Of a stretch of DNA of 64,000 nt, positions 1,092 to 64,000 are shown piece by piece. A program made the translations under genes and the position numbers. The stretch lies in IMG/VR virus record IMGVR_UViG_3300021387_000281; one strand, given 5' to 3'. The stretch comes from an uncultured virus (IMG/VR IMGVR_UViG_3300021387_000281) (Duplodnaviria; Heunggongvirae; Uroviricota; Caudoviricetes; Crassvirales). Below the pieces are notes generated by a model. The model did no database searches, was not told the DNA's origin, and saw only the letters and a program-made list of their open reading frames with translations. Position 1 is the stretch's first letter; each line of letters begins with the position of its first letter.

Positions 1092-1440
1092 AACACTATA
1101 TAAGATAGTATTGTATTCAGTAAAGGTGATACCTATGGTGGTTTCGGGTATTTATCTGATGAATACAGTACTATCTTATTTTGATATAGACTTGGAACTG
1201 TTTTCCTATGTGGTACAATTCTTGTTTATAGGACAGATGTATGCTACTTCTTTTGCTTTTAAGTTTTGTGCTTGGCACAGGATGTTCATACATTATATCA
1301 TGATTATTTTCATTCTGAACATCATTGATTATCATATAGGATTTCCTCTTACTGATAAGAGAATGCTCACCTTATATATTATTATAGCAACTATTTGTAT
1401 GTTTTTAGCGTTATACTTGAAGATAAAATGCAGACACTAA
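1066..1440 (+). CDS. membrane protein (about 4 hydrophobic segments)
   Basis: 124-aa, strongly hydrophobic ORF overlapping its neighbours. Confidence 0.65.
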   Translation: MAVEESLSKTLYKIVLYSVKVIPMVVSGIYLMNTVLSYFDIDLELFSYVVQFLFIGQMYATSFAFKFCAWHRMFIHYIMIIFILNIIDYHIGFPLTDKRMLTLYIIIATICMFLALYLKIKCRH

Positions 1441-1706
1441 AGAAGATTATAACAAAGCTATTAAGGGAAACTGCTGATAAGATAGATTCTGGAAACTGTG
1501 AATTATCAGAATCAGAAGCTATGGATATTATGAGTGTTCTCAGTCATCAGGCAATGAGTAAAGAGGATGCTTGTGTCTATATGAACATGAGTAGAAGTAA
1601 ATTTGATAGTTTGATTAGTGAAAGAAAGCTTCCTAAAGGCAGGAAGAGAAGAGGATTCAAAGAATTATGCTGGTATCGAGATGAGCTTGATGCTTATAAG
1701 AAGTAG
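1428..1706 (+). CDS. helix-turn-helix DNA-binding protein (excisionase/AlpA-like)
   Basis: MSKEDACVYMNMSRSKFDSLISERKLPKG...W pattern typical of MerR/Xis-like HTH. Probable start MQTLKK at 1428. Ends in TAG. Confidence 0.7.
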   Translation: MQTLKKIITKLLRETADKIDSGNCELSESEAMDIMSVLSHQAMSKEDACVYMNMSRSKFDSLISERKLPKGRKRRGFKELCWYRDELDAYKK

Positions 1707-1726
1707 TCACACGGTGACTACAAACA
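1703..1726 (+). repeat. 7-5-7 palindromic element (dispersed family)
   Basis: GTAGTCA-CACGG-TGACTAC-AAACA, overlapping the TAG stop of the HTH gene. Confidence 0.65.
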
Positions 1727-1743
1727 TAACTGGGAATATTTTT

Positions 1744-1778
1744 ACTCTCTAACTACTTGATAGTTAGGGAGTTTTTTC
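1744..1778 (+). terminator. intrinsic terminator
   Basis: ACTCTCTAACTA-CTTGA-TAGTTAGGGAGT hairpin followed by a T run. Confidence 0.75.
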
Positions 1779-3275: not shown

Positions 3276-3785
3276 ATGTTTTCAAATTTAGGTAAAGGCA
3301 GTGTACTGCAAGGTGTGGATAAAAGTGGTGATAAGCTGAAGTGGTTTACTGGTACTGTGGAAAGGATAACTCCTTCATTGAGTAATCCCTACCCCCAATA
3401 CCCTAATGCCTTCGGGCAACTTCCTGCTGTGAGTCTTGATATTATTGCTAATATTGATGGTAAGCAAAGGGAGTTCAAGGGAGTACATAGTGATGACACT
3501 ATAGCAGATTTTGGTAAGAATACAGTTATTCTTGCAGATTCAGAGACTTCTTTGTTCAATCATATCAACTCACTCTTGAAGACCAGTGAGGAAGCTGTGA
3601 ACAAGGATAATATTTCTTGGCATGAAAGGATGATTCCTCAGTATAGAGGAGTGCTATCTGATATGAGACCTGGGACTACCAATAGTACAGAGGTGAAAGA
3701 GCTGAAGGAGCAAGTTGGTAGCTTGCAGGCACAGCTTGCAGAAGCACTGGCTTTACTTAAAGGAGAAGCTAAAGCTAAAGCTTAG
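3276..3785 (+). CDS. hypothetical protein with C-terminal coiled coil
   Basis: 169-aa ORF in the operon. Ends TAG followed by TGT TGA. Confidence 0.7.
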   Translation: MFSNLGKGSVLQGVDKSGDKLKWFTGTVERITPSLSNPYPQYPNAFGQLPAVSLDIIANIDGKQREFKGVHSDDTIADFGKNTVILADSETSLFNHINSLLKTSEEAVNKDNISWHERMIPQYRGVLSDMRPGTTNSTEVKELKEQVGSLQAQLAEALALLKGEAKAKA

Positions 3786-3837
3786 TGTTGATAGTTTAGA
3801 GTTTAGAGAAAATTAAAAAGTTTAAAATTTTTAGGAT

Positions 3838-6690: not shown

Positions 6691-8976
6691 ATGGAAGAGA
6701 TTAGAGTAAACAAGTATCAAACACAGATTACAGAAGAACTTCTAAAACAATATCCGCAGGAGGTTCAGGATGACTTTAAGGAATTTATAATAACAGTTCC
6801 TTTTATCAAGAATTTGATTTCTCCTAACAGACAGTATGCTAAAGACAGACCCAGAGATGATAGGGGTAGAATTATTGTTGATTTGGCCAATCCACATATT
6901 CTGGAGAATATGGATTACTTCAGACCTGCGGCCCTTCACTATATAAAGCATGGCTGTTATACTTTTTTAAAGCCTAATAAGAATCCGAATTCACCTTACG
7001 GGAAATGGATCAGAGAAGAAATCAGAAGATGCTGGGAAGGCTATGTGAGACCTATTGATGGAGAATGGGTAACCGGGTATATGTATTTCTATTTGAACTA
7101 TGTGCCTATGATGGTCACTAAAGCCAGTAAGGATGCCCGCAAGAAAACAGCTTCCCGTGTAGAAGGATTTCCTGAGGTTTGGGAAGCAACCTACTGGCGT
7201 TTTCATTATATAGACCAAGCAAGAAATGGAGGCAAGTATAATAACTTTGAAGGAGGTAATCATGCCGTAGAACTTAGTAAGCGTGGTAGTGGTAAGAGCT
7301 TTGGTCTTGCTGCTATTATGGCCCACAATCTTATATTAGGTGAGAATGCCGAAGCTCATAAGAGAACTACTACTATCCTCACTGCTTACCTGAGGGAATA
7401 CTTGGCAGAGAAAGATGGTACATTCTCAAAGTTTCTGCCTATTAAATCTTTCTTGGCAGAGAAGATGCCTGCGTGGCCTAGGAGAATGCTAACAGACTCT
7501 CCTAATAAGATGTCATGGAGACAGGGATACAAAGACAAACTTACTGGTGCAGAGATGGGAGACCAGAATATTCTTCTGGGACTTTCTTCTAAAGATGATG
7601 TTTCAAAGATTCGTGGTAAACGAGGATATATATTGTTTGAAGAGTTTGGTTCTTTCCCTAACCTGATTGAGATTTACAACAATGTCAGAGATGGAATGAA
7701 GGAAGGTAAATACGTGTATGGCCTTGCGTATCTCGTAGGTACAGCAGGTGATAAAGACTCAGACTTTCATGGTGCTCAGGAGCTTGTGTACAACCCAAAG
7801 GGATATGATGTATATGCACTGCCTAATGTGTGGGATAAACCCAATCAGGGAAGGCCACTGTTTGCTTTCTTTACTCCTGCCTATGCTAATCTGAAAGGCT
7901 TCTATAATAAGAATGGTGTATCAGATGTAGTAGGCTCATTACTATTTCTTTTACAAAGTAGATTCACGGCCAAATATGAAACAGGAGACCCAAGGACTAT
8001 CATTAAGGTAGTGAGTAATATGCCCATCACTCCTTCAGAGGCTATCATACAAGGAAGTATCAGTCAGTTCCCAGTGACTGATATTGAAGCAAGAATGCTG
8101 GAGATTAAGAGTAATCCGAATTTTTATGATAATACCTATGTGGGCCAGTTTGCCATTACAGATAATAAAGTAGAATTTGTTCCCACATCAGATACACCTA
8201 TCAGATATTTCCAGCAGAAGGATAATAAGAATATGCCAGGAGCAGTGGAAATCTTTGAAATGCCTCAGACAGATTCAGAAGGTAAGGTATATGAAAACAG
8301 ATATATAGCAGGCGCCGACCCTTATGATAATGATGAATCAACCACCACATCACTGGGTTCAATACTGATGCTTGACTTGTGGACAGATAGGATAGTAGCA
8401 GAATATACAGGAAGACCAGCGATGGCAGATGATTATTTTGAAATCTGTAGGAGAATGTGTCTTTTCTATAATGCAAGGCTAAACTATGAGAACAACAAGA
8501 AAGGATTGTTTGCCCATTTCTCAAGAATGAATTCCACCTACCTTCTTACGGATGTATTGGAGATACTTGTAGACAAACAAATGATGAAACCTGGAGGAGT
8601 AGGTAATACTGCAAAGGGTACTAATGCCTCACAGAGTATTAATGGTTGGGCAAGACAACTTATCAATAAATGGTTATTGACTCCTCAAACTACTGTAATA
8701 ACAGAGAATGGAGAAGAGAAAGAAGTCACTATTCATAATCTGAATCTTATTAAGAACCTAGCACTACTTATAGAACTATCAGAATGGAATCCTTTGGGTA
8801 ACTTTGACCGTGTATCTGCTTTAGGCATGCTGATGCTTTTCAGGGAAGACAAACTTAGGTTGATGGGAGGCAGATACAACAATCACACAGAAGATGTCTA
8901 TGACCCTGATGACCCTGCAAATGATGATTTTTTCAGAGATAATTATCCTGATGAAGAAGACAAGATTTTGTTATAA
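6691..8976 (+). CDS. terL: terminase large subunit
   Basis: Walker A-like SKRGSGKS, Walker B ILFEE, motif III VGTAG, nuclease YIAGADPY and NFDRVSAL; 761 aa, upstream of portal. Confidence 0.93.
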   Translation: MEEIRVNKYQTQITEELLKQYPQEVQDDFKEFIITVPFIKNLISPNRQYAKDRPRDDRGRIIVDLANPHILENMDYFRPAALHYIKHGCYTFLKPNKNPNSPYGKWIREEIRRCWEGYVRPIDGEWVTGYMYFYLNYVPMMVTKASKDARKKTASRVEGFPEVWEATYWRFHYIDQARNGGKYNNFEGGNHAVELSKRGSGKSFGLAAIMAHNLILGENAEAHKRTTTILTAYLREYLAEKDGTFSKFLPIKSFLAEKMPAWPRRMLTDSPNKMSWRQGYKDKLTGAEMGDQNILLGLSSKDDVSKIRGKRGYILFEEFGSFPNLIEIYNNVRDGMKEGKYVYGLAYLVGTAGDKDSDFHGAQELVYNPKGYDVYALPNVWDKPNQGRPLFAFFTPAYANLKGFYNKNGVSDVVGSLLFLLQSRFTAKYETGDPRTIIKVVSNMPITPSEAIIQGSISQFPVTDIEARMLEIKSNPNFYDNTYVGQFAITDNKVEFVPTSDTPIRYFQQKDNKNMPGAVEIFEMPQTDSEGKVYENRYIAGADPYDNDESTTTSLGSILMLDLWTDRIVAEYTGRPAMADDYFEICRRMCLFYNARLNYENNKKGLFAHFSRMNSTYLLTDVLEILVDKQMMKPGGVGNTAKGTNASQSINGWARQLINKWLLTPQTTVITENGEEKEVTIHNLNLIKNLALLIELSEWNPLGNFDRVSALGMLMLFREDKLRLMGGRYNNHTEDVYDPDDPANDDFFRDNYPDEEDKILL

Positions 8977-9070: not shown

Positions 9071-11488
9071 ATGAGTGTAGAAACATTTGTAGGGTTTCCG
9101 CAACAGCGTCTTTCTGATAAGCAGAAAGGTAAACAGTGGAGAAAGAAATGTGTTGATTTTGCAGATGCTAAAGGCAGCACTTTGAATTCGTCTCCTGTCA
9201 GGAAGTCCTTTCTTCATAAGAAGATAAACTACGATCTTTGGAACATGAAGATACATACTGATGATATCCAGTATGTATTGAATCCTAATAAGCTGAAGGC
9301 AAACTTCATTCCTGATAACCTGCAGCATTATCCTACTATTAATCCCAAGCTGAATGTGCTTAGGGGAGAAGCTCTTGCAAGAGTCTTTGATTGGCATGTG
9401 ACTATTACTAATCCCAATGCCATCAGTGAGATAGAAAATGCCAAGAGAGATGCAGTATATCAGAGTCTGCAGGCATTGGTACAGAATCAGTCAGTTTCAG
9501 AAGAAGACTATCAGAAGAAGCTTACTGAGCAGAATGACTACTTCCAATACCAGTATCAGGATATGAGGGAAGTAAGGGCCAACGAATTACTGAAACACTA
9601 CAGCAAGGAGTATGATTTCAAGGACTTGTTTGACAATCAGGGTATCATGGATGCCATGATAGTTAAGGAAGAAATCTATCTGAATGACATTATAGGTGGA
9701 GAACCTGTTGTAGAAAGAATAGACCCTATGAAACTCAGGGTATTCAGGTCGGGTAATTCAAATAGAATAGAAGATGCAGATATGCTTGTCTATGAGGATT
9801 ATAAGAACATTGGATGGGTGAGAGATACCTATTATGATGTTCTTACTCCAAAAGACCATGCCTACTTGGATAAGATAGAAACAGGAGGTGTTGATGGTGA
9901 TGATGTAGACATCTGGGATGACAGAAATGCTTACATGAATGACTATCAACTTGGAGATACAATGGTCAGCAATCCCCATTTCTTCTCTACCATGCTGAAC
10001 AATGTGGATTATACTACTACCATGCTTCCTTATGATGGTGAAGGCAATGTGAGGGTACTTAGAGTATTCTGGAAATCGGCAAGAAAGATTAAGAAGATTA
10101 AGTACTACGACTACGAGACAGGAGAAGAGGATTATAAGTTTATGCCTCAGACATATGTTGCAGATAAGACAAGAGGAGAAGAAGAAGAAATACTGTGGGT
10201 TAACGAGGCTTGGGAAGGTACTAAGATTGGTACAGAGATATATGTGAATATCAGACCCAGACCAGTGCAGTACTTCTCAATGAGTAATCCATCGAGATGC
10301 CATTTTGGAATTATCGGGCAGTTATATAATATAGGTAGTACTAACTCACCCTCATTAGTAGATACCTTAAAGCCATACTCTTATTTGTATGATGCTGTTT
10401 TTGATAAGCTTTACAAGTTGATAGAATCCAATTTAGGTAAACTTACTATTTTGGACCTCTCTTTTAAACCCGACTCTTGGACAACAGAGAAGTGGATGTA
10501 CTTTGCCAAGGTAAATCACATTGCAGTAAAGAACAGTTTCAATGAGGGTAAGAAGGGTGCCGCAACAGGTAAGCTTGCAGGAGCTATGAATAACAACTCC
10601 TCAGGTGTGATAGATGCTTCAGTCACCCAGGAGATACAGTACAACATTCAGCTTCTTGATTGGATAGAAACAGTAATGGGTAAAGCCTGCGGAATATCGC
10701 CTCAGAGAGAAGGACAGGTGTCTAATAGGGAGACTGTAGGAGGTGTGGAAAGAGCCACACTGCAAAGCTCACATATCACTGAATGGCTGTTTGCTCAGCA
10801 TGACAGCTTGAAGAAGAGAGAGCTTGAATGTTTCCTTGAAACTGCTAAGATAGCTTTGAAGGGAAAGAAAAAGAAGTTTGAATATATTACCTCAGAGGGC
10901 TCTCAGAAAATCATGGTGATAGATGGAGATGAGTTTGCTGAGTGCGACTATGGTCTTGTTGTGGATAACTCTCAGGGTACTCAGGCACTTTCTCAGAAGC
11001 TTGAAACTCTTGCACAGGCAGGTTTGCAGAATCAGATGATTAACTTCTCTACAATGATGAAACTCTATTCTACAGACTCTATGGCAGAGAAGATTAGAAT
11101 GATAGAAGCATCAGAGAGAAGAATGCAGGAACAGCAGGAAGCCCAGCAACAGCAACAGATGCAGATGCAACAACAGCAGTTGCAGGCAGCAGCAGAGCAG
11201 AAGCAGCTTGAAATGGAGCAGCGAGATATTCAGAATCAGAGAGACAATGACACCAGGATTCTTGTTGCTAAGATACAAGCACAAGCCAATATTGATTCTT
11301 CAGTGGCAAGAGCATCAGGATTTACGGAGACACCTATGCAACCTCTTACTGAGAAAGAAAGAGCTGAATTGCTTCAAAGAACAAGGGAGTTTGATGAAAA
11401 GAACAAGCTTGACCATGAGAAGCTTCAGCTTGAGAGAGAGAAGATTAAATCCCAGGAGAGGATTGCCAAACAGAAGAAACCGAGTTAA
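9071..11488 (+). CDS. portal protein
   Basis: 805 aa after terL. FPQQRL..K N-terminus, WVNEAWEGTKIG, GISPQREG...ETVGGVE, Gln-rich C-terminal coil, as in crAss-like portals. Confidence 0.88.
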   Translation: MSVETFVGFPQQRLSDKQKGKQWRKKCVDFADAKGSTLNSSPVRKSFLHKKINYDLWNMKIHTDDIQYVLNPNKLKANFIPDNLQHYPTINPKLNVLRGEALARVFDWHVTITNPNAISEIENAKRDAVYQSLQALVQNQSVSEEDYQKKLTEQNDYFQYQYQDMREVRANELLKHYSKEYDFKDLFDNQGIMDAMIVKEEIYLNDIIGGEPVVERIDPMKLRVFRSGNSNRIEDADMLVYEDYKNIGWVRDTYYDVLTPKDHAYLDKIETGGVDGDDVDIWDDRNAYMNDYQLGDTMVSNPHFFSTMLNNVDYTTTMLPYDGEGNVRVLRVFWKSARKIKKIKYYDYETGEEDYKFMPQTYVADKTRGEEEEILWVNEAWEGTKIGTEIYVNIRPRPVQYFSMSNPSRCHFGIIGQLYNIGSTNSPSLVDTLKPYSYLYDAVFDKLYKLIESNLGKLTILDLSFKPDSWTTEKWMYFAKVNHIAVKNSFNEGKKGAATGKLAGAMNNNSSGVIDASVTQEIQYNIQLLDWIETVMGKACGISPQREGQVSNRETVGGVERATLQSSHITEWLFAQHDSLKKRELECFLETAKIALKGKKKKFEYITSEGSQKIMVIDGDEFAECDYGLVVDNSQGTQALSQKLETLAQAGLQNQMINFSTMMKLYSTDSMAEKIRMIEASERRMQEQQEAQQQQQMQMQQQQLQAAAEQKQLEMEQRDIQNQRDNDTRILVAKIQAQANIDSSVARASGFTETPMQPLTEKERAELLQRTREFDEKNKLDHEKLQLEREKIKSQERIAKQKKPS

Positions 11489-11571: not shown

Positions 11572-11643
11572 TGCCCTATGGTGTAATTGACAGCACAAAG
11601 GCTTCTAGATCCTTTAGTCTGGGTTTGAATCCTAGTGGGGCTA
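11572..11643 (+). tRNA. amber suppressor tRNA (anticodon CUA), tRNA-Gln-like body
   Basis: Cloverleaf: acceptor TGCCCTA/TGGGGCT plus discriminator A, D arm GTG..CAC, anticodon arm AAGGC-TT-CTA-GA-TCCTT (CTA at 11605-11607), T arm CTGGG-TTTGAAT-CCTAG. The 5' end TGCCCTATGGTGTAATTG is typical of Bacteroidota tRNA-Gln. CCA is not encoded. Confidence 0.88.
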
Positions 11644-11721
11644 CTCATTTTGTTTATGCGATTTTTTCTTTATTATTAGTTTGTTTTAGTTTAAAGTAGA
11701 ATTCGGACATAGCGCAAGTGG

Positions 11722-13099: not shown

Positions 13100-14635
13100 A
13101 TGGCAGGACAATTAGGTAAATTTACAATGCAGCACTTTAAGGCATGGGCCCCTCAGATTACTAAGAAGACCCATATTAGTTCCATCTTTGGCACTAAGAC
13201 TCAGAAGGTGCCAGGTATGATGGTACAGCTGATGGCCTTTAAGTATGGTAAGACACTTGACACTATGCTCAGCGCTCTTCCTGTAAAGGAATTTGAGAAT
13301 GGTGAGGAGTACATCTGGGATGTGATTGGTTCTACGGACAGAATCATTCCTCTGGTGGAAGCCCGTGATGAGAATGGTGAAGTAGTTACAGCCGAGAGTG
13401 GTAATGTAGGTGCTGGTACTCAGCCTTTCTATCTGGTGTTTGCAGAGCATTGGTTCTTTGATGGTGAGACCATTGAGGGTAATCTGGGTAACCGTTATCC
13501 CCTTCGCATTCTTGGTGATGCCCGTGAGGAAGGTTCCAATTATATCTATAAGGTAGAGACGATGGGTGGTATCACTGATGGTGTACCTGCAGAGCGTCTT
13601 CTTCCTGGTGAGAACTTCTCTTATGGTGCAGCCTTTGTTGAAGGAGGTCTCTCTCGTAAGGTTGGTGGTATTCGTCATGCAGTACCTGTGTCAATGAGAA
13701 ATGAATGGTCACACATTCGTATTCACCACAAGGTATCTGGTGACATGATGGATGACAAACTTGCTATTGCTGTTCCTATGAATGAGCCCACCAACAATGG
13801 TTATAAGGTTCGCATGGTGAACACTTGGATGCTGAATGTAGACTTTGAGGTTGAGAAGACCTTCCGTGACTACAAGAACTATGCTTATGCATGGGGTCGC
13901 AGCAACCGTAATAAGAATGGTGAGTATACTAACTTTGGTAAGAGTGGTGATGCCATCAGAACTGGTGCTGGTCTTTATGAGCAGATTGAGATGGGTAATA
14001 TTGTCTGGTACAATGACTTCTCTCTGAAGCTTATTGAAGATGCTCTTTATGACCTGTTTGCCGGCAAGGAAGACTTCAAGGACAGAAAGGTTACTATCCG
14101 CACTGGTGAGAAGGGTGGTATGCTGTTCCAGAAGGCAGCTCTGAAGGATGGTAGTGGTTGGAAGTCGATGTTTGACTTCAATGGTGATGCTCTTGGTTTG
14201 ATTTCCAAGACCACTAATGCTGCTGCTCCTCACGGTGGTGCTCTTAGAGTAGCTGTTCCTCAGATTACTGAGTTTGTTGCTCCTATGGGTGTTGCTATCA
14301 CTCTTGATATTGACCAGAGCTATGACAACATCAACCACAGTGGTTATAAGATTATGCATCCGATGGGAGGCCCTGCAAGCTCTTATATCTTTGATATTCT
14401 GGACCTTGGTTCTAGCATCAGCCCGAATATTCAGAAGTGTAAGATTAAGGGTCATCCTGAGGAGTCTCGTGGCTATGAGGCAGGATTCCGTAATCCGTTT
14501 ACTGGTGCATGGGATAATGACCACATGAGCAATGACGAGGATGCAGCTGTCATCCACAAGTTTGCAGATGCAGGTATTGTAGTTTGGGATCCTACCCGTA
14601 CTATGAGAATCATGCCTGACATTCTTGAGGGTTAA
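13100..14635 (+). CDS. major capsid protein
   Basis: 511 aa, strongly biased (highly expressed) codons, G(K)SG..IRTGAGL.EQ and TGEKG motifs of crAss-like capsids, position after the scaffold, followed by a terminator. Confidence 0.88.
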   Translation: MAGQLGKFTMQHFKAWAPQITKKTHISSIFGTKTQKVPGMMVQLMAFKYGKTLDTMLSALPVKEFENGEEYIWDVIGSTDRIIPLVEARDENGEVVTAESGNVGAGTQPFYLVFAEHWFFDGETIEGNLGNRYPLRILGDAREEGSNYIYKVETMGGITDGVPAERLLPGENFSYGAAFVEGGLSRKVGGIRHAVPVSMRNEWSHIRIHHKVSGDMMDDKLAIAVPMNEPTNNGYKVRMVNTWMLNVDFEVEKTFRDYKNYAYAWGRSNRNKNGEYTNFGKSGDAIRTGAGLYEQIEMGNIVWYNDFSLKLIEDALYDLFAGKEDFKDRKVTIRTGEKGGMLFQKAALKDGSGWKSMFDFNGDALGLISKTTNAAAPHGGALRVAVPQITEFVAPMGVAITLDIDQSYDNINHSGYKIMHPMGGPASSYIFDILDLGSSISPNIQKCKIKGHPEESRGYEAGFRNPFTGAWDNDHMSNDEDAAVIHKFADAGIVVWDPTRTMRIMPDILEG

Positions 14636-36200: not shown

Positions 36201-39200
36201 ACAAAGAGAAAGAAGAGAAGAAAGCAGACAAGAAGAATGCTGAGGAAGATGCAAAGAGTAAGTTTGCAGGAAAGACGGCAAAGGAAATAAACCAAGATAT
36301 TTCAAATGGAAATATATCTGAAGAAGATGTAGACGATTTCTCAGTTGCTGACCTTAGCGATATTACTGATGAAGATTCCAAACAAGCATTGGAAGCTGCA
36401 AAGAGTGAAGCACAGAAAAGTAAAGAGATTAGACAGAAACAAGCAGAAGCCAAAGGAGCTATTCTACAGAAAGCAGATGAAGAAGGTTATAACAGTGCTT
36501 CTGTTGATGCAGCATTGAATGCTATAGACACTATGGCTGCAAATGCTGATGATGCAGCAGATATCAACTTGGATAATGTAGCAGCTGCCATTCCTCCTTC
36601 TGATTATGAAGGAGCAGATGTTGGTGTATCAGAAGCAGAGAAATTAGCACAACAGGTTACAGACCTTGTGGCTGAAGGGCTCAATGCATGGAAAGAGAAC
36701 CAAGATAAAAAAGATGATATTCCTGACCCATCAACTGCTGTAAACTTTAGAGAACCAGAGGATACTGGACATGACAGTACTACTAAAGTGCCCGCAGAAA
36801 CAGCTGCACCTAAAGTAGAAACTCCTCAGAATAGTGATGAGTGGGAGCAGCCCACTCCTACTAATACCCTAACATCGGAAGCAGTAGATACTATTGTAGA
36901 AGAGCTGAGAAAAGCAAGTGAAGAACCTGCAAAGGCTGGAACATGGAGAAGCACTACAAGGAGATATGGAAGAAGACAGAATGCTGCAGGAGGATGGTAT
37001 GCAACTAATGTTCCCTATCATGAGCTGATATCAGATAAGAACTCTTTGAGGTATAAGAGGAGCAAGGCTATATGGGAATATCTTGATGCTCAGGGAACTT
37101 GGGATAGAATAGAAAATGCAGGCAAAGACAGACTAAAAGCAGGAGACAAGATACACTTTATGGTAAAGAACTTTGCCAATGAAATATTTGGTAAAGACTT
37201 TGAAGACTGTACTGAAGAAGAGAAATCGCAGGCACTTGTTATCTTGATGCTTAATGATAATGGGGAAGTACTTGGAGATTTACCTCTTGCCCAGTTAGAG
37301 CCCTCTTATAACAATGGTGATGAGTCAAAGATGACTCAGCAAGTAAAGGAACTTGTATCTACCCAGAAAATGCTCTTTGATGCTTTTGAAGAGAAGAGAA
37401 AGCAGACAGGATGTAATGAAGCTATAGCAGACAAGACTCTTCAGAAAGACGGTGTAGAGAATCTTGGACTTACTTTTAATAACAGAACTAAGAGTCCATT
37501 TATGTCAGAGATTTCTCAGGTACTGAATGGTATGGTGCCATTTGGTAGTGAGGTGAATACTCTGAATGATGTGATGGGCAATGAGAACTTGCTGCTTGGT
37601 ATATCTGTTACAGGAGAGACTATTGCCACTTCAAGAGATAAGAAGGACAGAAGAGGCGGCGCTGCAAGAGGTACTAGGACTGGTAATATAGGACAGCCCT
37701 ACCTGCTTATGCCTTCAGCCTCTGGAGCTTTGATGGCTGTGCCTTTCTATACCAAAGCTTTTGATGCTCAAAGACATCAGGGAACAGAACTCTATAGACT
37801 GCTGACGGAATCAATTACAAGCTTGCTTCAAGATGCTATCAATAAAAAGGAAGATGCAAACTCCTATAAAGAAGCAATGGATATTATACAGGCATTGCTT
37901 CAAGTAAGACCACAGGAAGGAGCTAAGAGTACTGTAGAGATTAAGGACAATCAGGTTATCATGCATCTGCAGAGCTTGGTTGATGCAGACAGGAAGATAG
38001 ATATTACAATACCAAATACTGGAGATGTGACTGCTATGGCTACTGCTATAGCTAATCAGATGAGTGGTACTAATATCAATATCAGTCTACAGTTTATCAA
38101 TACTAAGATTGGTAGAAAGGGAGGTAGGACAGCGGATTACAATAAGGTAATAGGAGAGATTGCGGAAGTTAATCTTCCAAAGAACACTACTCACACAAGA
38201 AACAACTGGTTTACTATTAAGCTTTCTACTCAGGCAGGAAATAAGAGAAATGAAGTAAGATACCAGCAGTCAGGAAAGCAGACAGTGAATCTGAATGGTA
38301 GGACTATTCAGATAGATACTGATAACTTTACTGCAGTAAGAATAGACCCAACAACCAAGGAAGAGATTCCTATAGAAGGTGATGAAGAAGTGAATCTGCT
38401 TCTTGCTGAAGTGAAAGCTGCACAGCAGGCAGACAAGACAAAAAACTTTAAAATAACCTTGGATGGAGAAGTCAGAATTTGTAAAATTACAGATAATGGA
38501 AAGGTTGAATTTGTAAAAGCTTCTCAAGGTACAGGTGTCAATGCAGGGCAGGAATCTCTTAATAAGCAAAGAGATGAGAGAAGAGAAAGAAGGAATGAGA
38601 TTAGGACTTATATTAATGATAATATTAGAAGTCTTAATGTCGCAGGAAGTAATGCTATTATTGATGACATTCTTGAGATTGACCCATCATTAGACACTCA
38701 AAAGATTGCTGGATTAATAGAGAAAGCATTTAATAGGAGTCCTGCGGCTGCAAAGTGGCTTATTGAACATAGTGGATTTAGGAATAAGCTGATTACACTT
38801 ATTAGAAAGAGTAATACTACGCAAGAGAATCAAACTACTTCTAATGTTTCTCCTGCTACTACTACTTCAAATACAGAAGAAACTACTTCAACACAGCAAG
38901 TAGCCCAAGGTGCTATTTCCTTCTCTAATGATAGTGCTCAACAGCCTACAAAGCAACAATGGTCAGATACACCTGAGCATAGAGTGCAGAACAGTAAACT
39001 TTTGCACAAACAAGATATTCTTGACGTGTATGATGATACAGACGGTGGATTGCAAATAACTATAAAAGCAATAGATGGGTCAGGAAGAACTGCAATAATA
39101 GGCTTTAGTAATAGTAAGAAAAAATTTACTCTACAAGTAAATACTCTTCAAGGAGAAGATGCTGTTTATCCATCCGAAGAACAAATAAATAATATGGTAA

Positions 39201-57500: not shown

Positions 57501-58283
57501 TCATACATCGAGAAGAGGGTAATTAAAGCCAACTTTTTTATATACAGCATAAGGATTAAGTCTTAGTTGATACTCGTGCTGCCTTAACTCTTCTATCATG
57601 CACTTTTTACACTCCTCTTGTTCCTTTTTTAGAAGATCATTGGAAACAAAAGTTGTAAAATTCACATACCCTCTATTACAAGAATAAACACCAAGACTTA
57701 TTCCTTCCCTATGATAAGTGATAAGATTTCCATAGCCCTTTTTCTTAATACATGAATCATCTTTAGCTATATAATACTTTCCCTCTTCATCTTTGCTTAG
57801 ATAATAGCCATTATCCCATGTATCCATTGACATGTGGTGAACACGAAAAACCATTTTTACTAATTCTAAGAAATTTGGTCCCTTAATACCTTTAGGTTCC
57901 ACATATCTTTCTCTAAAACGGTTGAAGTAATGAGGGGTGAAATCAAAGCAATAGAATTCACCATCATCACTGCCTTGATATGAATAAATTCCTACTCCAT
58001 TATTTATAGATTCTTTAGCATGATTTATAAAATACTTCTGAAAAGCACTTACACATATAACTCCTTTGCGTAAGCTACTCTTTGCCTCTGCCTCACACAT
58101 AATAGTCCAAACTCCCATTCCTGGAATTTCTTCATCTTTTGTATAGAAGTAAGGAAAGCTTTTGGCTTTTGATAATATTTTGTGTATTCTAACCCTTTTA
58201 TTAAAAGACATATTGCGGATGTAGTTATCTATTGTCCTCATCTGAGAGTATTTCTCTTCTGGAGTCATTGTTTGTAGTATCAT
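57501..58283 (-). CDS. hypothetical protein (AT-rich) inserted between the VWA and AAA genes
   Basis: 260 aa; FTPHYFNRFRER motif; ATGA overlap with the VWA gene. Confidence 0.7.
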   Translation of the reverse strand: MILQTMTPEEKYSQMRTIDNYIRNMSFNKRVRIHKILSKAKSFPYFYTKDEEIPGMGVWTIMCEAEAKSSLRKGVICVSAFQKYFINHAKESINNGVGIYSYQGSDDGEFYCFDFTPHYFNRFRERYVEPKGIKGPNFLELVKMVFRVHHMSMDTWDNGYYLSKDEEGKYYIAKDDSCIKKKGYGNLITYHREGISLGVYSCNRGYVNFTTFVSNDLLKKEQEECKKCMIEELRQHEYQLRLNPYAVYKKVGFNYPLLDV

Positions 58284-59569
58284 AGCTTTTCTTTTGGAAT
58301 ATAGATTGTCTTACCAGGGAAATCCTGGTGCATGCCATTAGAGGTGATTACCCATACCATGCCAGAAGGACGCTTGAGAGGAAGAGAACATTCCCCATCA
58401 GTGAAATAGATGAGGGAAGCATACTCTTTACGATGCTTAATGTAATACTCTACAGGGGGATTGAAGTTTGTGCCTCCACGCCCTACAATCTCAGGAATCA
58501 TCTTACCGTCATATTCTACTATCTTGTTGATGCGAGCATCACACTCAAGAATAGTGACACGAGCTCCTGCCTTATAGATATACTCAATCTCAGAGAAGAA
58601 GTCTTGAAGTTCCTTAGAGGATACAGAGCCTGAAGTATCGACAGCTACAAGTATAGAAACTTTCTTCTTGTGCTGAATACCTGCTGCTCCTTCAAATCGC
58701 TTGCTTTGCTTGCGTCTGGTAGACTTAATATTTACATCATAGATACTTCCAAGCATCCGACGGAAATAAGCCTTCCAGTTAAAAATCTCAGGCTTTTTCT
58801 CACGTAGTTTCTCTACTATCTCACGAAGCTCCATAGGAATAGTACCACACTGCTTCTCAATCTGCTCAGCAGTAGCCTTTACAATAGAGTTGATATTGTT
58901 CTGTATGAGTTGCTGAGTAGCTTGTGGGATATCTTTAAAGTCTTTCCATGAGTCATGGGAGTCTATAGGCTTGAAACCTTTATTAAGGATTTCTTCTGGG
59001 TATTCTTGCTTCTGAGGTTCTTGCTGTTCTTGGGGAGTATTACCCTCTCCCTCCTCTTTCTTCTCTTCTTGAGAGTTCTGAGAAGATTGAGGATTCTGAG
59101 AATTTTGAGACTGTCCTCCCTGACCTCCATTACAAGGCAGTTGGGGAGATTGGGCTTGTTGTTGCTGTTGTTGTTGCATCAGAGCCTCATAGTAGAACTT
59201 AGTACCTTTGCCATTAGGGAGACCCAACTGAGATGCAAAGCATCCGTCTTTAGGAAGATTGTCTATGTAGGAGTTTACTTCCATATCCATAGCAACATTG
59301 ACCATCTTATGATTAGGGAGATGGTCCCAAGTACCAAAGATATGCTGAAGGGCTATATGACTAAGCTCATGGGTGAGAAGGGCTATCTGTTCATCATCAG
59401 TATGTTCTTTCCAAAAGTCAGGATTGATAATAAGTTCACAGCCAAGTCCTTGCTTTTTTACTCCTAACGTAGGAACTGCCTTGCTTTCCCTTTTGGACAG
59501 GCTTAATGCAAAGAGTCCATAGAAAGGATTCTTAATAAGCAGACGTTTAAATGCTTTTTCTAATTCCAT
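58280..59569 (-). CDS. metallopeptidase-like plus VWA domain protein (DUF2201-like)
   Basis: THELSHIALQH...NVAMDMEVN, Gln-rich linker, MIDAS DTSGS, GRGGT.F, YFTDG. Confidence 0.88.
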   Translation of the reverse strand: MELEKAFKRLLIKNPFYGLFALSLSKRESKAVPTLGVKKQGLGCELIINPDFWKEHTDDEQIALLTHELSHIALQHIFGTWDHLPNHKMVNVAMDMEVNSYIDNLPKDGCFASQLGLPNGKGTKFYYEALMQQQQQQQAQSPQLPCNGGQGGQSQNSQNPQSSQNSQEEKKEEGEGNTPQEQQEPQKQEYPEEILNKGFKPIDSHDSWKDFKDIPQATQQLIQNNINSIVKATAEQIEKQCGTIPMELREIVEKLREKKPEIFNWKAYFRRMLGSIYDVNIKSTRRKQSKRFEGAAGIQHKKKVSILVAVDTSGSVSSKELQDFFSEIEYIYKAGARVTILECDARINKIVEYDGKMIPEIVGRGGTNFNPPVEYYIKHRKEYASLIYFTDGECSLPLKRPSGMVWVITSNGMHQDFPGKTIYIPKEKL

Positions 59570-59584
59570 AATAATAGATATTTA

Positions 59585-59612
59585 GTCGTTATGCTATAAC
59601 GACATACTAGAC
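59585..59612 (+). repeat. 7-5-7 palindromic element (dispersed family)
   Basis: GTCGTTA-TGCTA-TAACGAC-ATACTAGAC. Confidence 0.75.
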
Positions 59613-59737
59613 TTAAACTTAGGGCAAGCAGGACAATATGACCATGTAGACTTTGGTCCAAATGTGCAGATAGGAGTTCCTAATATATCATAGAAGAAAT
59701 ACAGGCACTCTTTGCATAAATGGTCTTTAGATGGCAT
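59594..59737 (-). CDS. small Cys-rich protein (47 aa)
   Basis: MPSKDHLCKECLYFFYDILGTPICTFGPKSTWSYCPACPKFKSSMSL; GGAGG upstream; ends TAG. Not in the ORF track. Confidence 0.55.
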   Translation of the reverse strand: MPSKDHLCKECLYFFYDILGTPICTFGPKSTWSYCPACPKFKSSMSL

Positions 59738-59739
59738 AA

Positions 59740-59877
59740 CTACCACCTCCTTTCCCTTAGTAAGTCATACTCAGTGAATACTCTCCAGTTTTTGTCAACA
59801 TAGTACTTTACCTTGTTGACAGTGGCAGCATAGTACAATGTGCTGCCTTTACGATTATAAATGATTTCGTTTTTCAT
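59740..59877 (-). CDS. small hypothetical protein (45 aa)
   Basis: MKNEIIYNRKGSTLYYAATVNKVKYYVDKNWRVFTEYDLLRERRW; ends TAG 2 nt before the next ATG; alternative start at 59901. Confidence 0.55.
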   Translation of the reverse strand: MKNEIIYNRKGSTLYYAATVNKVKYYVDKNWRVFTEYDLLRERRW

Positions 59878-59922
59878 TACAGTAAGCTTTTTTTCAATCA
59901 TTCATTGTAGGTACAATTATAA

Positions 59923-60315
59923 TTAATCTTGTTTTCTAGGTTCTGGATAAGTAGCACACACCCAGTTATAGAAAGATTCTGCAATCTTCTCTATCTCTTC
60001 AATGGTAGTATCATCATGCCATGTGAGAAATAGTTCCATTCTTTCATCAATAGTTCTAGATACATCAACATGTACCTCAATTCCTACATGATTTCTCTCT
60101 TTCTCAGGAAGTCTATTCCATAGTTCCCTCTTTAGAGAATAGTCATAGATGGAAAGAAGCAGCTGGTAACCATTTCTATTTTCTTCCCATTTATTATCTT
60201 TCTTATGAAAGCCTTTGCCTATAACATAATCCTCTTCATGCCAATGCTGAATATATTTCTTATACCCTCTTTCATAGAGAGATTGTGCAAGAGGCTCAAA
60301 CTGGTCTTTGTTCAT
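59923..60315 (-). CDS. hypothetical protein
   Basis: 130-aa ORF in the packed - strand operon. Confidence 0.65.
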   Translation of the reverse strand: MNKDQFEPLAQSLYERGYKKYIQHWHEEDYVIGKGFHKKDNKWEENRNGYQLLLSIYDYSLKRELWNRLPEKERNHVGIEVHVDVSRTIDERMELFLTWHDDTTIEEIEKIAESFYNWVCATYPEPRKQD

Positions 60316-60466
60316 GTTTTCTTTCTTTTTTTAACTGTTCTCTTTTATACTCTGCAATATAGCGGGTAGCTTGTACTTTTTCTCTACCACCTCTGTTCCA
60401 ATACCAATCTTTCCAGTATTCTTTAGGATTAGTTTTCCACATGGGAGCTTTAGAAATACTATCCAT
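60296..60466 (-). CDS. small basic Trp-rich protein (56 aa)
   Basis: MDSISKAPMWKTNPKEYWKDWYWNRGGREKVQATRYIAEYKREQLKKERKHEQRPV; TAATG coupling to the upstream gene. Confidence 0.6.
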   Translation of the reverse strand: MDSISKAPMWKTNPKEYWKDWYWNRGGREKVQATRYIAEYKREQLKKERKHEQRPV

Positions 60467-60642
60467 TACTTCAAGACTTCTTTATGAAAGGTTATATTTC
60501 CCTGGGTAAACATCCATTGACAGTCATTGGCTCTATGTCCAAGAGAGTCTAAGAGTTCATCTATATCAGGCTCATTATCATATTTTACAGGATAGATATC
60601 TACTTCTCCTGTAGTAAAGTCAAGAATAATTAACTTTTCCAT
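60466..60642 (-). CDS. small acidic protein (58 aa)
   Basis: MEKLIILDFTTGEVDIYPVKYDNEPDIDELLDSLGHRANDCQWMFTQGNITFHKEVLK; TAATG overlaps at both ends. Confidence 0.65.
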   Translation of the reverse strand: MEKLIILDFTTGEVDIYPVKYDNEPDIDELLDSLGHRANDCQWMFTQGNITFHKEVLK

Positions 60643-60812
60643 TATATTACCTTTTTTAATGTTTCAATGAGAGCATCACGTATAATGCTCTTGTCTTTTA
60701 AATCACATCTATGAAGTGCTACATAGTTTCTTCGGTAATTACCATACTAGTCAGTATAGTCTTTTACTTTACAATATGTACCATCTTCATTAACAGTAAT
60801 AGTAATCTTCAT
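60642..60812 (-). CDS. 56-codon gene with one in-frame TAG (codon 22), intact if TAG is read as Gln
   Basis: MKITITVNEDGTYCKVKDYTD[TAG]YGNYRRNYVALHRCDLKDKSIIRDALIETLKKVI-TAA. Start overlaps the upstream stop (TGATG) and stop overlaps the downstream start (TAATG). Confidence 0.65.
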
Positions 60813-61258
60813 CAGTTCTCAACATATTCAGTTTCATCTTCTGTCCAACCTTCACACTCCTCAATAAGATGCTTGATTTCCCTCTTTTTCTGCTTTGTCC
60901 TAGCATCATTGGCTTCCTCTGCATCCTTTAATATATCCCATTGTTTCATAAGGTATTCCTTGAACTTATTTATAAGTTCTAATGGGGTATAATGGTCATT
61001 CTTATATTCTTTATCCCAATTAGTATCAGAAGTATCATCAGAGTCATGCCAGCCCACAGCAGTATAACCACCTTCATCATCAGACTCATAATCTACTCCA
61101 GATGCTCCAGGAATGTAGTTATCTGTGTAAACAATGACATTTTTACTGAGAGATTGAGAACAAGTTACTTCAAACTCTTTCTCTGGAATAACAGGTTCAT
61201 TCCAAGGTGCTGATGGATCAAACTCAGATCCTGCAGGATAATAGCCACTTTCAATCAT
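60812..61258 (-). CDS. acidic hypothetical protein
   Basis: 148 aa; N-terminal YYPAGSEFDPSAPWNE; ATGA overlap with the upstream gene. Confidence 0.7.
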   Translation of the reverse strand: MIESGYYPAGSEFDPSAPWNEPVIPEKEFEVTCSQSLSKNVIVYTDNYIPGASGVDYESDDEGGYTAVGWHDSDDTSDTNWDKEYKNDHYTPLELINKFKEYLMKQWDILKDAEEANDARTKQKKREIKHLIEECEGWTEDETEYVEN

Positions 61259-61860
61259 ATAAAATCAAACATTATAAAGTTGTCAGAACCTAAATGTTTT
61301 GCATAGTTATCTGCATTATGTATCTGCGCATATAACCAAGGCCAGAAGTCATCAAGTTTAGCATACCATTTATTCTTATTTGAGCCAAACATTGAAGTAG
61401 TAGAGCTATAGCAATGGGTGATGTTAGGAGTGATGAAGTGAGAATTGTACAACTGTTTCCAATCATATTTTCTCCTACCTTCAAGGAAATAAATCTTATT
61501 GAAGGTTCTATCAATCATCTCACAGAATTCAGTAAACTTCTCCTCCTGATACTCCTGTGACTTCACCTTATGATTCTGCTCTAACAACACTCTTACATAT
61601 ACAGGTTCCTGCTTACCTTTATCATTGAGGAATTGAAGGTCAGCAAGAAGTTTTTCCACAGAGATGTCAAAAGAGAGTATCCCATGCCTAATTAAGAGAC
61701 CATCCTTACTGAAGAATAGTCTCAGGTCAAACATACGTACTCCAGCATTCCACTGATTAATGATGGAATGCTTCTGACATCTTGCCATAAAGCGGAAGGG
61801 GTACATATACCAGTATTTAGGACGGGCATAAGACCAAGAGTTATGACTAGCTAATCTCAT
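61255..61860 (-). CDS. PI-PLC-like (TIM-barrel) phosphodiesterase
   Basis: ASHNS...CQ..SI..Q.NAGVRMFDLR...RHG are PI-PLC X-domain motifs. Confidence 0.75.
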   Translation of the reverse strand: MRLASHNSWSYARPKYWYMYPFRFMARCQKHSIINQWNAGVRMFDLRLFFSKDGLLIRHGILSFDISVEKLLADLQFLNDKGKQEPVYVRVLLEQNHKVKSQEYQEEKFTEFCEMIDRTFNKIYFLEGRRKYDWKQLYNSHFITPNITHCYSSTTSMFGSNKNKWYAKLDDFWPWLYAQIHNADNYAKHLGSDNFIMFDFI

Positions 61861-62690: not shown

Positions 62691-62708
62691 AATTGTTTTG
62701 ATTTTTTA

Positions 62709-62736
62709 GTTGCTATAACATAGCAACATACTGGAC
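62709..62736 (+). repeat. 7-5-7 palindromic element (dispersed family)
   Basis: GTTGCTA-TAACA-TAGCAAC-ATACTGGAC. Confidence 0.75.
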
Positions 62737-62990
62737 TAAGATATAGCTAACTGGCCTAAGCCACACTCTTTAAGGCGAGCATTAGCATAGTTGTGACGAA
62801 GCTCTGAGAGTTTCTCTACAATTTCCTTTGTTGCCCACTGCTTTTCAATAGGAACAAAAGGGACACCATTGTAAGCAATAAATAGACTATCATCAAAGTC
62901 ATCGAGAGTAATGAGTCTCTCAGCTTCTTCCATGATGTTTGCATAACGCTTGGTTTGAGATTTTTCTCTGATTGTACGAATGAATTCCAT
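62736..62990 (-). CDS. hypothetical protein
   Basis: 84-aa ORF in the operon; ends TAG. Confidence 0.65.
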   Translation of the reverse strand: MEFIRTIREKSQTKRYANIMEEAERLITLDDFDDSLFIAYNGVPFVPIEKQWATKEIVEKLSELRHNYANARLKECGLGQLAIS

Positions 62991-62993
62991 AAT

Positions 62994-63392
62994 TTAAAAC
63001 TTAAATTCAATATTTCTTTTTGAAGGGAATGATTTGATGTAGTCAATAAATCGCTGCATAAGAAGGCTATCTTTATCATCACATCTGTCAATGGCATACA
63101 TTAGCAAATCCTGAAGAGCACTGCAAGACTCCTCATAGGAAAGCTGTGTTTCCATATCAGTAGTGAGAAACAGCTTACGAAGTTCACGAGAGCATTTAAG
63201 CAACCCTTTCCAATTTTGTTTTTCTTTGAACTTTATTGGGGGAACTCCTGCTTTCTTTCTATACTCATCAATATCTACCATTAATGCCTCACAGATGTCT
63301 GGGAGGATATAAAGAATAGTCATGCGAATGTTTGCCTGATACATCAGTTCTTCCTGCTGTTCTTCTGAAATACTATTTAATGTTTCCAACAT
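62994..63392 (-). CDS. hypothetical protein
   Basis: 132-aa ORF overlapping the polymerase stop. Confidence 0.65.
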   Translation of the reverse strand: MLETLNSISEEQQEELMYQANIRMTILYILPDICEALMVDIDEYRKKAGVPPIKFKEKQNWKGLLKCSRELRKLFLTTDMETQLSYEESCSALQDLLMYAIDRCDDKDSLLMQRFIDYIKSFPSKRNIEFKF

Positions 63393-64000
63393 GTGTCAAT
63401 TTCTGGTTTTGCGGGGATTGGTAATTTTGTACATACTAATGCAGCAGCTTCTTCCATGCACTTAGATTGCATCAGAGGAACTTCAGAGAGGTCTTTCGGA
63501 TAGATAATATTACTCTCATCATGGACAAGAGAAGCTAGTTCTACTATTCCAAAATAATTACTATCAACAATCCAATTAAAGAAGTTAGTCATAGCTATCT
63601 TCAGAATCACTATACCTGAGCCTTGCGTCGGAGCATTAAGAGCCATACGGTCATACTTAGATGCAGCTTTGAAATGCATGGATACCATTTGAGCAATAGA
63701 ATCGCCAGTACCTTTATGCTTGGTTCTATACTCTTCCCAAAACTGTTGAGTAAATGATTTTTGGCGTTCTAACCAATCTTTATGGTCCCACCAATACATC
63801 TTATGCCCTGAGTATTTGCACATAAGAATATAGCCATGTTTTCTTACAAACTCTGAACCTCTTTTCTTGAAGTCTGCAATGCCCTTGAAACCGTTCCAAT
63901 AATCTTCTGCTATCTGCTCTGCTTCTTCAATAGAGCAAGCCAGTGCCCCTTGAATAGCAAATGGGGAGCCTCCAAACTGCATAGCAAACTCAGGGCCCTT
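63377..64000 (-). CDS. polA: DNA polymerase family A, C-terminal part (truncated by the window edge)
   Basis: Motif B end GPEFAMQFGG, ALNAPTQGSG, motif C LVHDE; the frame is open to the window end. Confidence 0.85.
   Translation of the reverse strand, partial: KGPEFAMQFGGSPFAIQGALACSIEEAEQIAEDYWNGFKGIADFKKRGSEFVRKHGYILMCKYSGHKMYWWDHKDWLERQKSFTQQFWEEYRTKHKGTGDSIAQMVSMHFKAASKYDRMALNAPTQGSGIVILKIAMTNFFNWIVDSNYFGIVELASLVHDESNIIYPKDLSEVPLMQSKCMEEAAALVCTKLPIPAKPEIDTCWKH

Follow-up and report, generated by a model that had tools for sequence, protein, structure and literature searches.

In a crAss-like gut phage, one small accessory gene is interrupted by a single in-frame amber codon, and the evidence assembled below indicates that this codon is probably the product of a recent nonsense mutation at Trp22 of a dispensable gene, in a phage that uses the standard genetic code and whose resident glutamine-type suppressor tRNA may partly mask the lesion. 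The whole stretch of DNA analysed, hereafter the window, comprises 64,000 nucleotides from an uncultured virus, and PHROG matches established a crAss-like gene layout within it. The features on which the argument depends are the following.

6691..8976: terminase (PHROG match)
9071..11488: portal (PHROG match)
11572..11644, plus strand: tRNA with anticodon CUA (ARAGORN; Rfam 45 bits against a cut-off of 29)
13100..14635: major head protein (PHROG match)
60466..60642, minus strand: 58-aa gene, downstream of the small ORF (ORF list)
60642..60812, minus strand: small accessory ORF of 56 codons with one in-frame TAG (sequence and ORF list)
60747..60749, minus strand: amber codon 22 of the small ORF, derived from TGG (Trp)
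60812..61258, minus strand: 148-aa gene, upstream of the small ORF and kept in seven related loci
62736..62990, minus strand: conserved 84-aa gene with a genuine TAG stop, used as a comparator
63377..64000: DNA polymerase fragment (PHROG match)

The small ORF lies on the minus strand, in the replication-side block near the polymerase, and runs from an ATG at 60812 through 21 sense codons, the TAG at 60749-60747 and a further 34 sense codons to a TAA at 60644-60642, such that translation of TAG as glutamine yields a 56-residue product. It shares bases with both neighbours, its ATG with the TGA of the 148-aa gene (TGATG at 60812) and its TAA with the ATG of the 58-aa gene (TAATG at 60642), an arrangement, described in the original prediction, that was confirmed from the sequence, the ORF list and the translation. 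The accompanying claim that this was the only TAG-interrupted gene in the window also held when the search was widened to approximately 78 kb by inclusion of G001, a near-identical record (2 mismatches to the window in the 26,809 bases they share) that reaches 13.8 kb past it: a scan for ORFs of at least 40 aa, in which TAG was treated as sense and overlap with called genes was disallowed, returned 60642..60812 as the sole gap-filling ORF with an internal TAG, everything else in the output being a 3-codon tail, short spurious frames or the tRNA gene. Four other read-through candidates, 59503..59901 (three TAGs), 62706..62990, 1428..1760 and 3276..3791, were rejected by reference to their homologues, which either fail to extend past the TAG or terminate at the same position. 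Neither near nor distant searches of a phage GenBank collection gave DNA matches. Because intact 56-aa homologues of its product exist, the small ORF is a real gene rather than a chance open frame.

Two neighbouring proteins deserve separate mention. The 201-aa protein coded for by 61255-61860 on the minus strand matches the Pfam family PI-PLC-X (phosphatidylinositol-specific phospholipase C X domain) with 26 bits against a curated cut-off of 23.1, an unusual match for the replication-side block of a phage, and the 429-aa protein coded for by 58280-59569 on the same strand contains a long mid-protein low-complexity stretch rich in Gln, Ser and Glu, and matches along its full length phrog_1314, a family listed under the label HNH endonuclease.

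A word-indexed protein search with the small protein returned a single cluster of nine members. Eight of these were intact variants, distributed over 26 contigs (2+8+8+4+1+1+1+1), and every one carried tryptophan at residue 22; in the closest of them, P0003, that residue was the sole difference from the window product. The ninth member, an NCBI-source sequence from an 845-base contig, corresponds to the Gln form of the protein, in which residue 22 may reflect either this amber codon rendered as Q or a genuine CAG/CAA codon. The alleles were then compared at the nucleotide level using Logan contigs from four runs placed on 60300-61300, the calls at 60748 being made from assembled contigs rather than reads and the depths being no measure of allele frequency.

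Run X2 (from which the window may derive): plus-strand 60748 = T, codon TAG, depth 8.61 of 8.61
Run X4: plus-strand 60748 = C, codon TGG, depth 11.8 of 11.8 (two contigs)
Run X5: plus-strand 60748 = C, codon TGG, depth 5.56 of 5.56
Run X6: plus-strand 60748 = C, codon TGG, depth 10.8 of 10.8

A single sample gave both X2 and X4, and with them both alleles; X5 and X6 derive from two other studies. The Logan contigs further indicated that strains without the TAG differ from the window at just a few bases in this region. The TAG itself was present in four assemblies, namely the window, G001, the metagenome contig L011 and the X2 Logan contig (0 differences over 825 bases), all of which may come from one study and perhaps are not independent, and which consequently do not establish that it has arisen or survived anywhere else. 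Given that the intact variants all specify Trp and that the three other runs all read TGG, the TAG is a recent, derived change, from G to A in the middle base of the Trp22 codon; on the same sequence evidence it is so far limited to one strain and still polymorphic in the population. The same counts (Trp in 8/8 intact variants, TGG in three runs) overturn the original assumption that codon 22 was formerly a glutamine codon changed from CAG to TAG.

Five other differences were found inside the ORF among the Logan contigs, flanking codon 22 on both sides. By codon count, four of them (60768, 60762, 60750 and 60669) are synonymous third-position changes and the fifth (60661) results in T51I; synonymous differences on either side of the amber codon fit purifying selection over the whole 56-aa product in the TGG strains. 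Non-Gln homologues combined with decay beyond the stop had been named at the outset as the pattern that would speak against glutamine read-through: the homologues do indeed carry Trp, but decay downstream was not seen, the mutation being too recent.

The dispensability of the gene was apparent from related loci. Eight such loci (L003-L010) were recovered by way of the 148-aa gene, of which L003 (identical to G001) and L008 (where the contig ends at the match) were set aside, and the small ORF was absent from all six that could be assessed, the best tblastn match having E = 0.86. In L005, L007 and L010 the homologue of the 58-aa gene follows directly upon that of the 148-aa gene; the slot is occupied in L004 and L006 by another ORF, ~85 aa long, which has a hydrophobic start and contains two CxxC pairs, and in L009 by one that contains a WCGPC motif. 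Moreover, one contig from run X4 matches both flanks and omits 60643-60817. The comparison therefore identifies the small gene as an optional one. The variable content of the slot (60642-60818, between the 148-aa and 58-aa genes) suggests a hot spot for small accessory genes.

An exhaustive profile-free search yielded only one distant homologue of the small protein, P0011 (58 aa, 42% identity), with Asn at the position of Trp22. The long repeat proteins P0010 and P0012, which arose from a representative search, were treated as spurious, P0010 matching only a short DYTDWY-like motif. An AlphaFold2 model based on a shallow alignment of nine sequences (mean pLDDT 79.4) predicted strands at residues 2-7, 13-20, 26-28 and 33-35 followed by a C-terminal helix at 41-55, with residue 22 falling in a loop (21-25). 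This predicted loop, together with the Asn of P0011, suggests that residue 22 may be tolerant of change, and a folded W22Q product is accordingly plausible, while a stop at codon 22 would, on the model, leave just the first hairpin. Searches for a PHROG or Pfam family gave none, Foldseek gave no PDB match at E ≤ 0.001 (the top rows being too weak), and the Atlas gave no lead on function.

That the phage uses the standard code was indicated by several lines of evidence. The terminase, portal, capsid and every large gene are open in code 11, and the coding density returned by a simple gene caller was 0.967 in code 11 as against 0.963 with TAG as sense. TAG terminates 5 of the 56 called genes of the window, including the 84-aa gene at 62736..62990, where it stands exactly where five relatives (L004-L008) have TAA. 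The original contention that TAG is still a stop nearby consequently stands, with 62736 rather than 59740 as its best example. Features diagnostic of code 15 were in the main lacking, there being neither multiple in-frame TAGs in conserved genes, nor a rise in density, nor a Gln alignment, and the one such feature present was the phage-encoded tRNA with anticodon CUA. The features associated with incipient recoding, by comparison, were all found: a standard code accompanied by a suppressor tRNA gene, a suppressor older than the in-frame stop, and a depletion of the matching stop for which the evidence is modest and drawn from one lineage.

The tRNA, proposed originally as a late-region tRNA of anticodon CUA, proved genuine and of glutamine ancestry. 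It is the sole tRNA detected in the window by ARAGORN and is located between the portal gene and a late gene coding for a 383-aa protein. The predicted cloverleaf has U1 opposite U72, an A discriminator, a C31-U39 mismatch, the anticodon loop UUCUAGA and a 4-base variable loop. A tRNA-CUA occurs at the same place (L034 1134-1205) in G007, a relative represented by a 36-kb fragment (L036+L037) with ~81% identical DNA, in which the 383-aa protein is 80% and the capsid protein 94% identical. Two stem pairs differ between the copies by changes on both sides, A-U to G-C, and are thus compensatory. Both copies have positions 1-72 and 31-39 unpaired, the latter as C-U in the window and A-C in G007, and these unpaired positions could weaken suppression; in the passages of PMC13092985 on 4-bp anticodon stems, the pair at issue is the top one, 27-43, whereas the pair open here is 31-39. 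Its syntenic retention in a relative ~81% identical shows the tRNA to be a conserved element much older than the TAG allele.

Kinship was assessed on a sample drawn by 5' 14-mer scans (at least 234 loci) and hence selected by a 14-base motif. Among the matches listed, at least 94 tRNAs bear the motif, comprising at least 54 tRNA-Gln (52 UUG and 2 CUG), at least 34 CUA suppressors, at least two each for Trp and Arg, at least one for Glu and at least one of unclear identity. The closest non-suppressors among those listed were Gln(CUG) tRNAs, with 62 and 55 matching positions compared with 49 in the tRNA-Trp sequences, the nearest being a viral tRNA-Gln(CUG) whose first 26 bases are identical; the tRNA-Gln(CUG) of a Bacteroidales MAG has an identical anticodon loop save for position 36. 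Of the 34 CUA tRNAs in the matches listed, only the G007 copy (L268) shares the loop type. These relationships indicate that tRNA-CUA descends from a tRNA-Gln(CUG) by one anticodon change, G36A, and make glutamine the amino acid with which it is most likely charged, an assignment in agreement with passages of Borges et al. (10.1101/2021.08.26.457843) according to which TAG to Gln is the only reassignment reported for phages and hosts of unlike code. A scan of viral contigs with the 17-base anticodon arm gave five matches, none of them a tRNA, and a search of five related records for the tRNA-CUA sequence gave no match. ARAGORN detected no CUA tRNA in the complete relatives G002 and G005, where other tRNAs are present: Met, Arg-UCU and Arg-CCU in G002, and six, including Gln-UUG, in G005. 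A tRNA-Arg(CCU) of the same phage lies at 39088-39160 of G001, ~12 kb past the end of the window.

The stop codons of late genes (window 4000-41300, plus strand) were compared with those of their counterparts in G007 (L036+L037), G002 (L015-L021) and G005 (L022-L028).

Window, with tRNA-CUA: 0 of 27 late genes end in TAG
G007, with tRNA-CUA: 0 of 17 homologues, and 0 of 19 genes in all, end in TAG
G002, without the suppressor: 5 of 17 homologues end in TAG
G005, without the suppressor: 3 of 16 homologues end in TAG, including the portal gene

The difference between the window (0/27) and the suppressor-less relatives (8/33) gave a Fisher p of 0.006, with the proviso that genes within a genome are not independent and that one lineage was compared with two relatives using a crude gene caller. 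TAG stops do occur in 3 of the 18 genes of the window's minus-strand block. The lack of TAG from the late genes is the pattern expected from selection against read-through of late stops, and offers an indirect hint that the suppressor works at late times in infection and has eliminated such stops from those genes.

Taken together, these data favour a scheme in which a phage lineage that has long carried an amber suppressor, formed from tRNA-Gln(CUG) by G36A, recently acquired a single-base change from TGG to TAG at Trp22 of a small accessory gene. Without suppression, ribosomes would release a fragment of 21 residues, and termination at codon 22 would no longer overlap the start of the 58-aa gene. 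With the suppressor present, some ribosomes would read the TAG, most likely as Gln, to give a full-length W22Q protein, and would probably do so late in infection since the tRNA gene stands among late genes. Read-through to a meaningful extent is, on this evidence, about evenly balanced with its opposite, and suppression in vivo, function in the W22Q protein and a causal part for the suppressor in the tolerance of the allele are presumed elements of the scheme. With one site to judge from, sheltering of the allele looks the same as the neutral knock-out of an unneeded gene.

Such a knock-out, in which the change from TGG to TAG simply kills the gene and the suppressor plays no meaningful part, being weak, mistimed or of some other purpose, is a distinct if rather doubtful possibility. 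It would be consistent with the absence of the gene from 6/6 assessable relatives and its omission from one X4 contig, with the confinement of the TAG allele to one strain, with the unpaired 1-72 and 31-39 positions of the tRNA, and with the separation of the tRNA gene, in the late block, from the small ORF, in the replication-side block; the ORF would still look intact because the mutation is young. Less readily accommodated are the retention of the tRNA in synteny and with compensatory changes over ~19% nucleotide divergence, and the lack of TAG stops from the late genes of both tRNA carriers, which suggest that UAG is read in infected cells and that any translated TAG would in part be read through.

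The programmed switch originally proposed, whereby the TAG specifies Gln and the full protein, together with the coupled downstream genes, is made only after the late suppressor has built up, now appears highly improbable. The overlapping stop-start layout is real, a Gln-type tRNA does stand among the late genes, and those genes do avoid TAG stops; however, the homologues carry Trp rather than Gln, all other strains found, including that in another run of the same sample, have TGG instead of a TAG kept as a read-through stop, the whole gene is optional, and G007, ~81% identical and with the same tRNA, is free of in-frame TAG across 36 kb. It is the absence of the TAG from other strains and of the gene from six related phages that makes a conserved switch unlikely.

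That the TAG is a sequencing or assembly error for a true TGG, as might be suspected of a single-base difference from a codon found in every other strain, is very unlikely given its presence in four separate assemblies, one of which (G001) differs from the window at two of the overlapping bases and is therefore no copy of the same assembly. Equally slight is the probability that the suppressor inserts Trp, in which case the change from TGG to TAG would be synonymous: Trp is the ancestral residue and at least 2 of the at least 94 motif-sharing tRNAs among the matches listed are tRNA-Trp, but at least 54 are tRNA-Gln, the closest non-suppressors listed are Gln(CUG) (62 and 55 matches versus 49), the anticodon loop is that of Gln(CUG) save for position 36, and TAG to Gln is the only change reported in the passages cited above.

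A recent nonsense mutation in a dispensable gene, perhaps partly masked by a resident suppressor, thus remains the preferred reading, and it may tentatively be extended to a lineage at the threshold of a code change, in which a long-kept suppressor has purged late TAG stops and the first in-frame TAG to segregate, a Trp-to-amber change read as Gln, now survives under cover of that tRNA. In this restricted sense the original suggestion of a first tolerated step of recoding retains some standing, its starting point being Trp rather than CAG; with one segregating site, early recoding and gene decay are not separable. Were the extension correct, recoding could begin at arbitrary non-Gln codons of dispensable genes outside the late block, rather than at Gln codons of late genes. 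If the suppressor does shelter the allele, the tRNA and the TAG would constitute a natural test of the suppressor-first model, and a cheap one, with TAG and TGG alleles available from runs of one sample alongside a conserved tRNA-CUA. The model has already been published with other examples, and the weak evidence of a single polymorphic site, in a gene the phage can do without, leaves the current view unchanged; the more useful lead is a suppressor conserved in phages without recoded genes, whose late genes lack TAG stops.

In classical amber suppression of the supE type in E. coli, the anticodon of a tRNA-Gln changes from CUG to CUA, and nonsense mutations are rescued by insertion of Gln. The present case is similar in that the same anticodon change in a tRNA-Gln would allow a nonsense mutation to be overcome by insertion of Gln; it differs in that the suppressor is carried by the phage and not by its host, is conserved rather than a laboratory mutant, and has positions 1-72 and 31-39 unpaired.

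A second comparison is with the code-15 crAss-like phages, in which TAG is reassigned to Gln, described in passages of Yutin et al. 2021 (PMC7886860) and reported to be validated by metaproteomics (PMC9523058). Like these, the present phage has a Gln-type tRNA-CUA among its late genes; unlike them, as those passages portray them, it has no in-frame TAG in terminase, portal, capsid or other large genes, gains no density when TAG is taken as sense, and still ends conserved genes with TAG.

The closest likeness is to the gut phages with pre-emergent suppressors. Passages of Yutin et al. 2021 (PMC7886860) and Borges et al. (10.1101/2021.08.26.457843) describe suppressor tRNAs that precede recoding, with in-frame stops appearing later, and the former distinguish 'suppressor pre-emergence' and 'incipient code change' as intermediates. 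In common with the phages so described, the present one combines the standard code, a phage suppressor tRNA and depletion of the matching stop with in-frame stops that are absent or just appearing. It departs from them, as they are presented there, in having a suppressor that, by anticodon, recognises TAG and is retained in two phages ~81% identical, and in that its single in-frame TAG is polymorphic and has taken the place of a Trp codon, in a dispensable gene away from the late block, rather than of a Gln codon of a late gene. With these particulars of its own, the phage matches the evolutionary intermediates that those passages of Yutin et al. 2021 and Borges et al. had already described.
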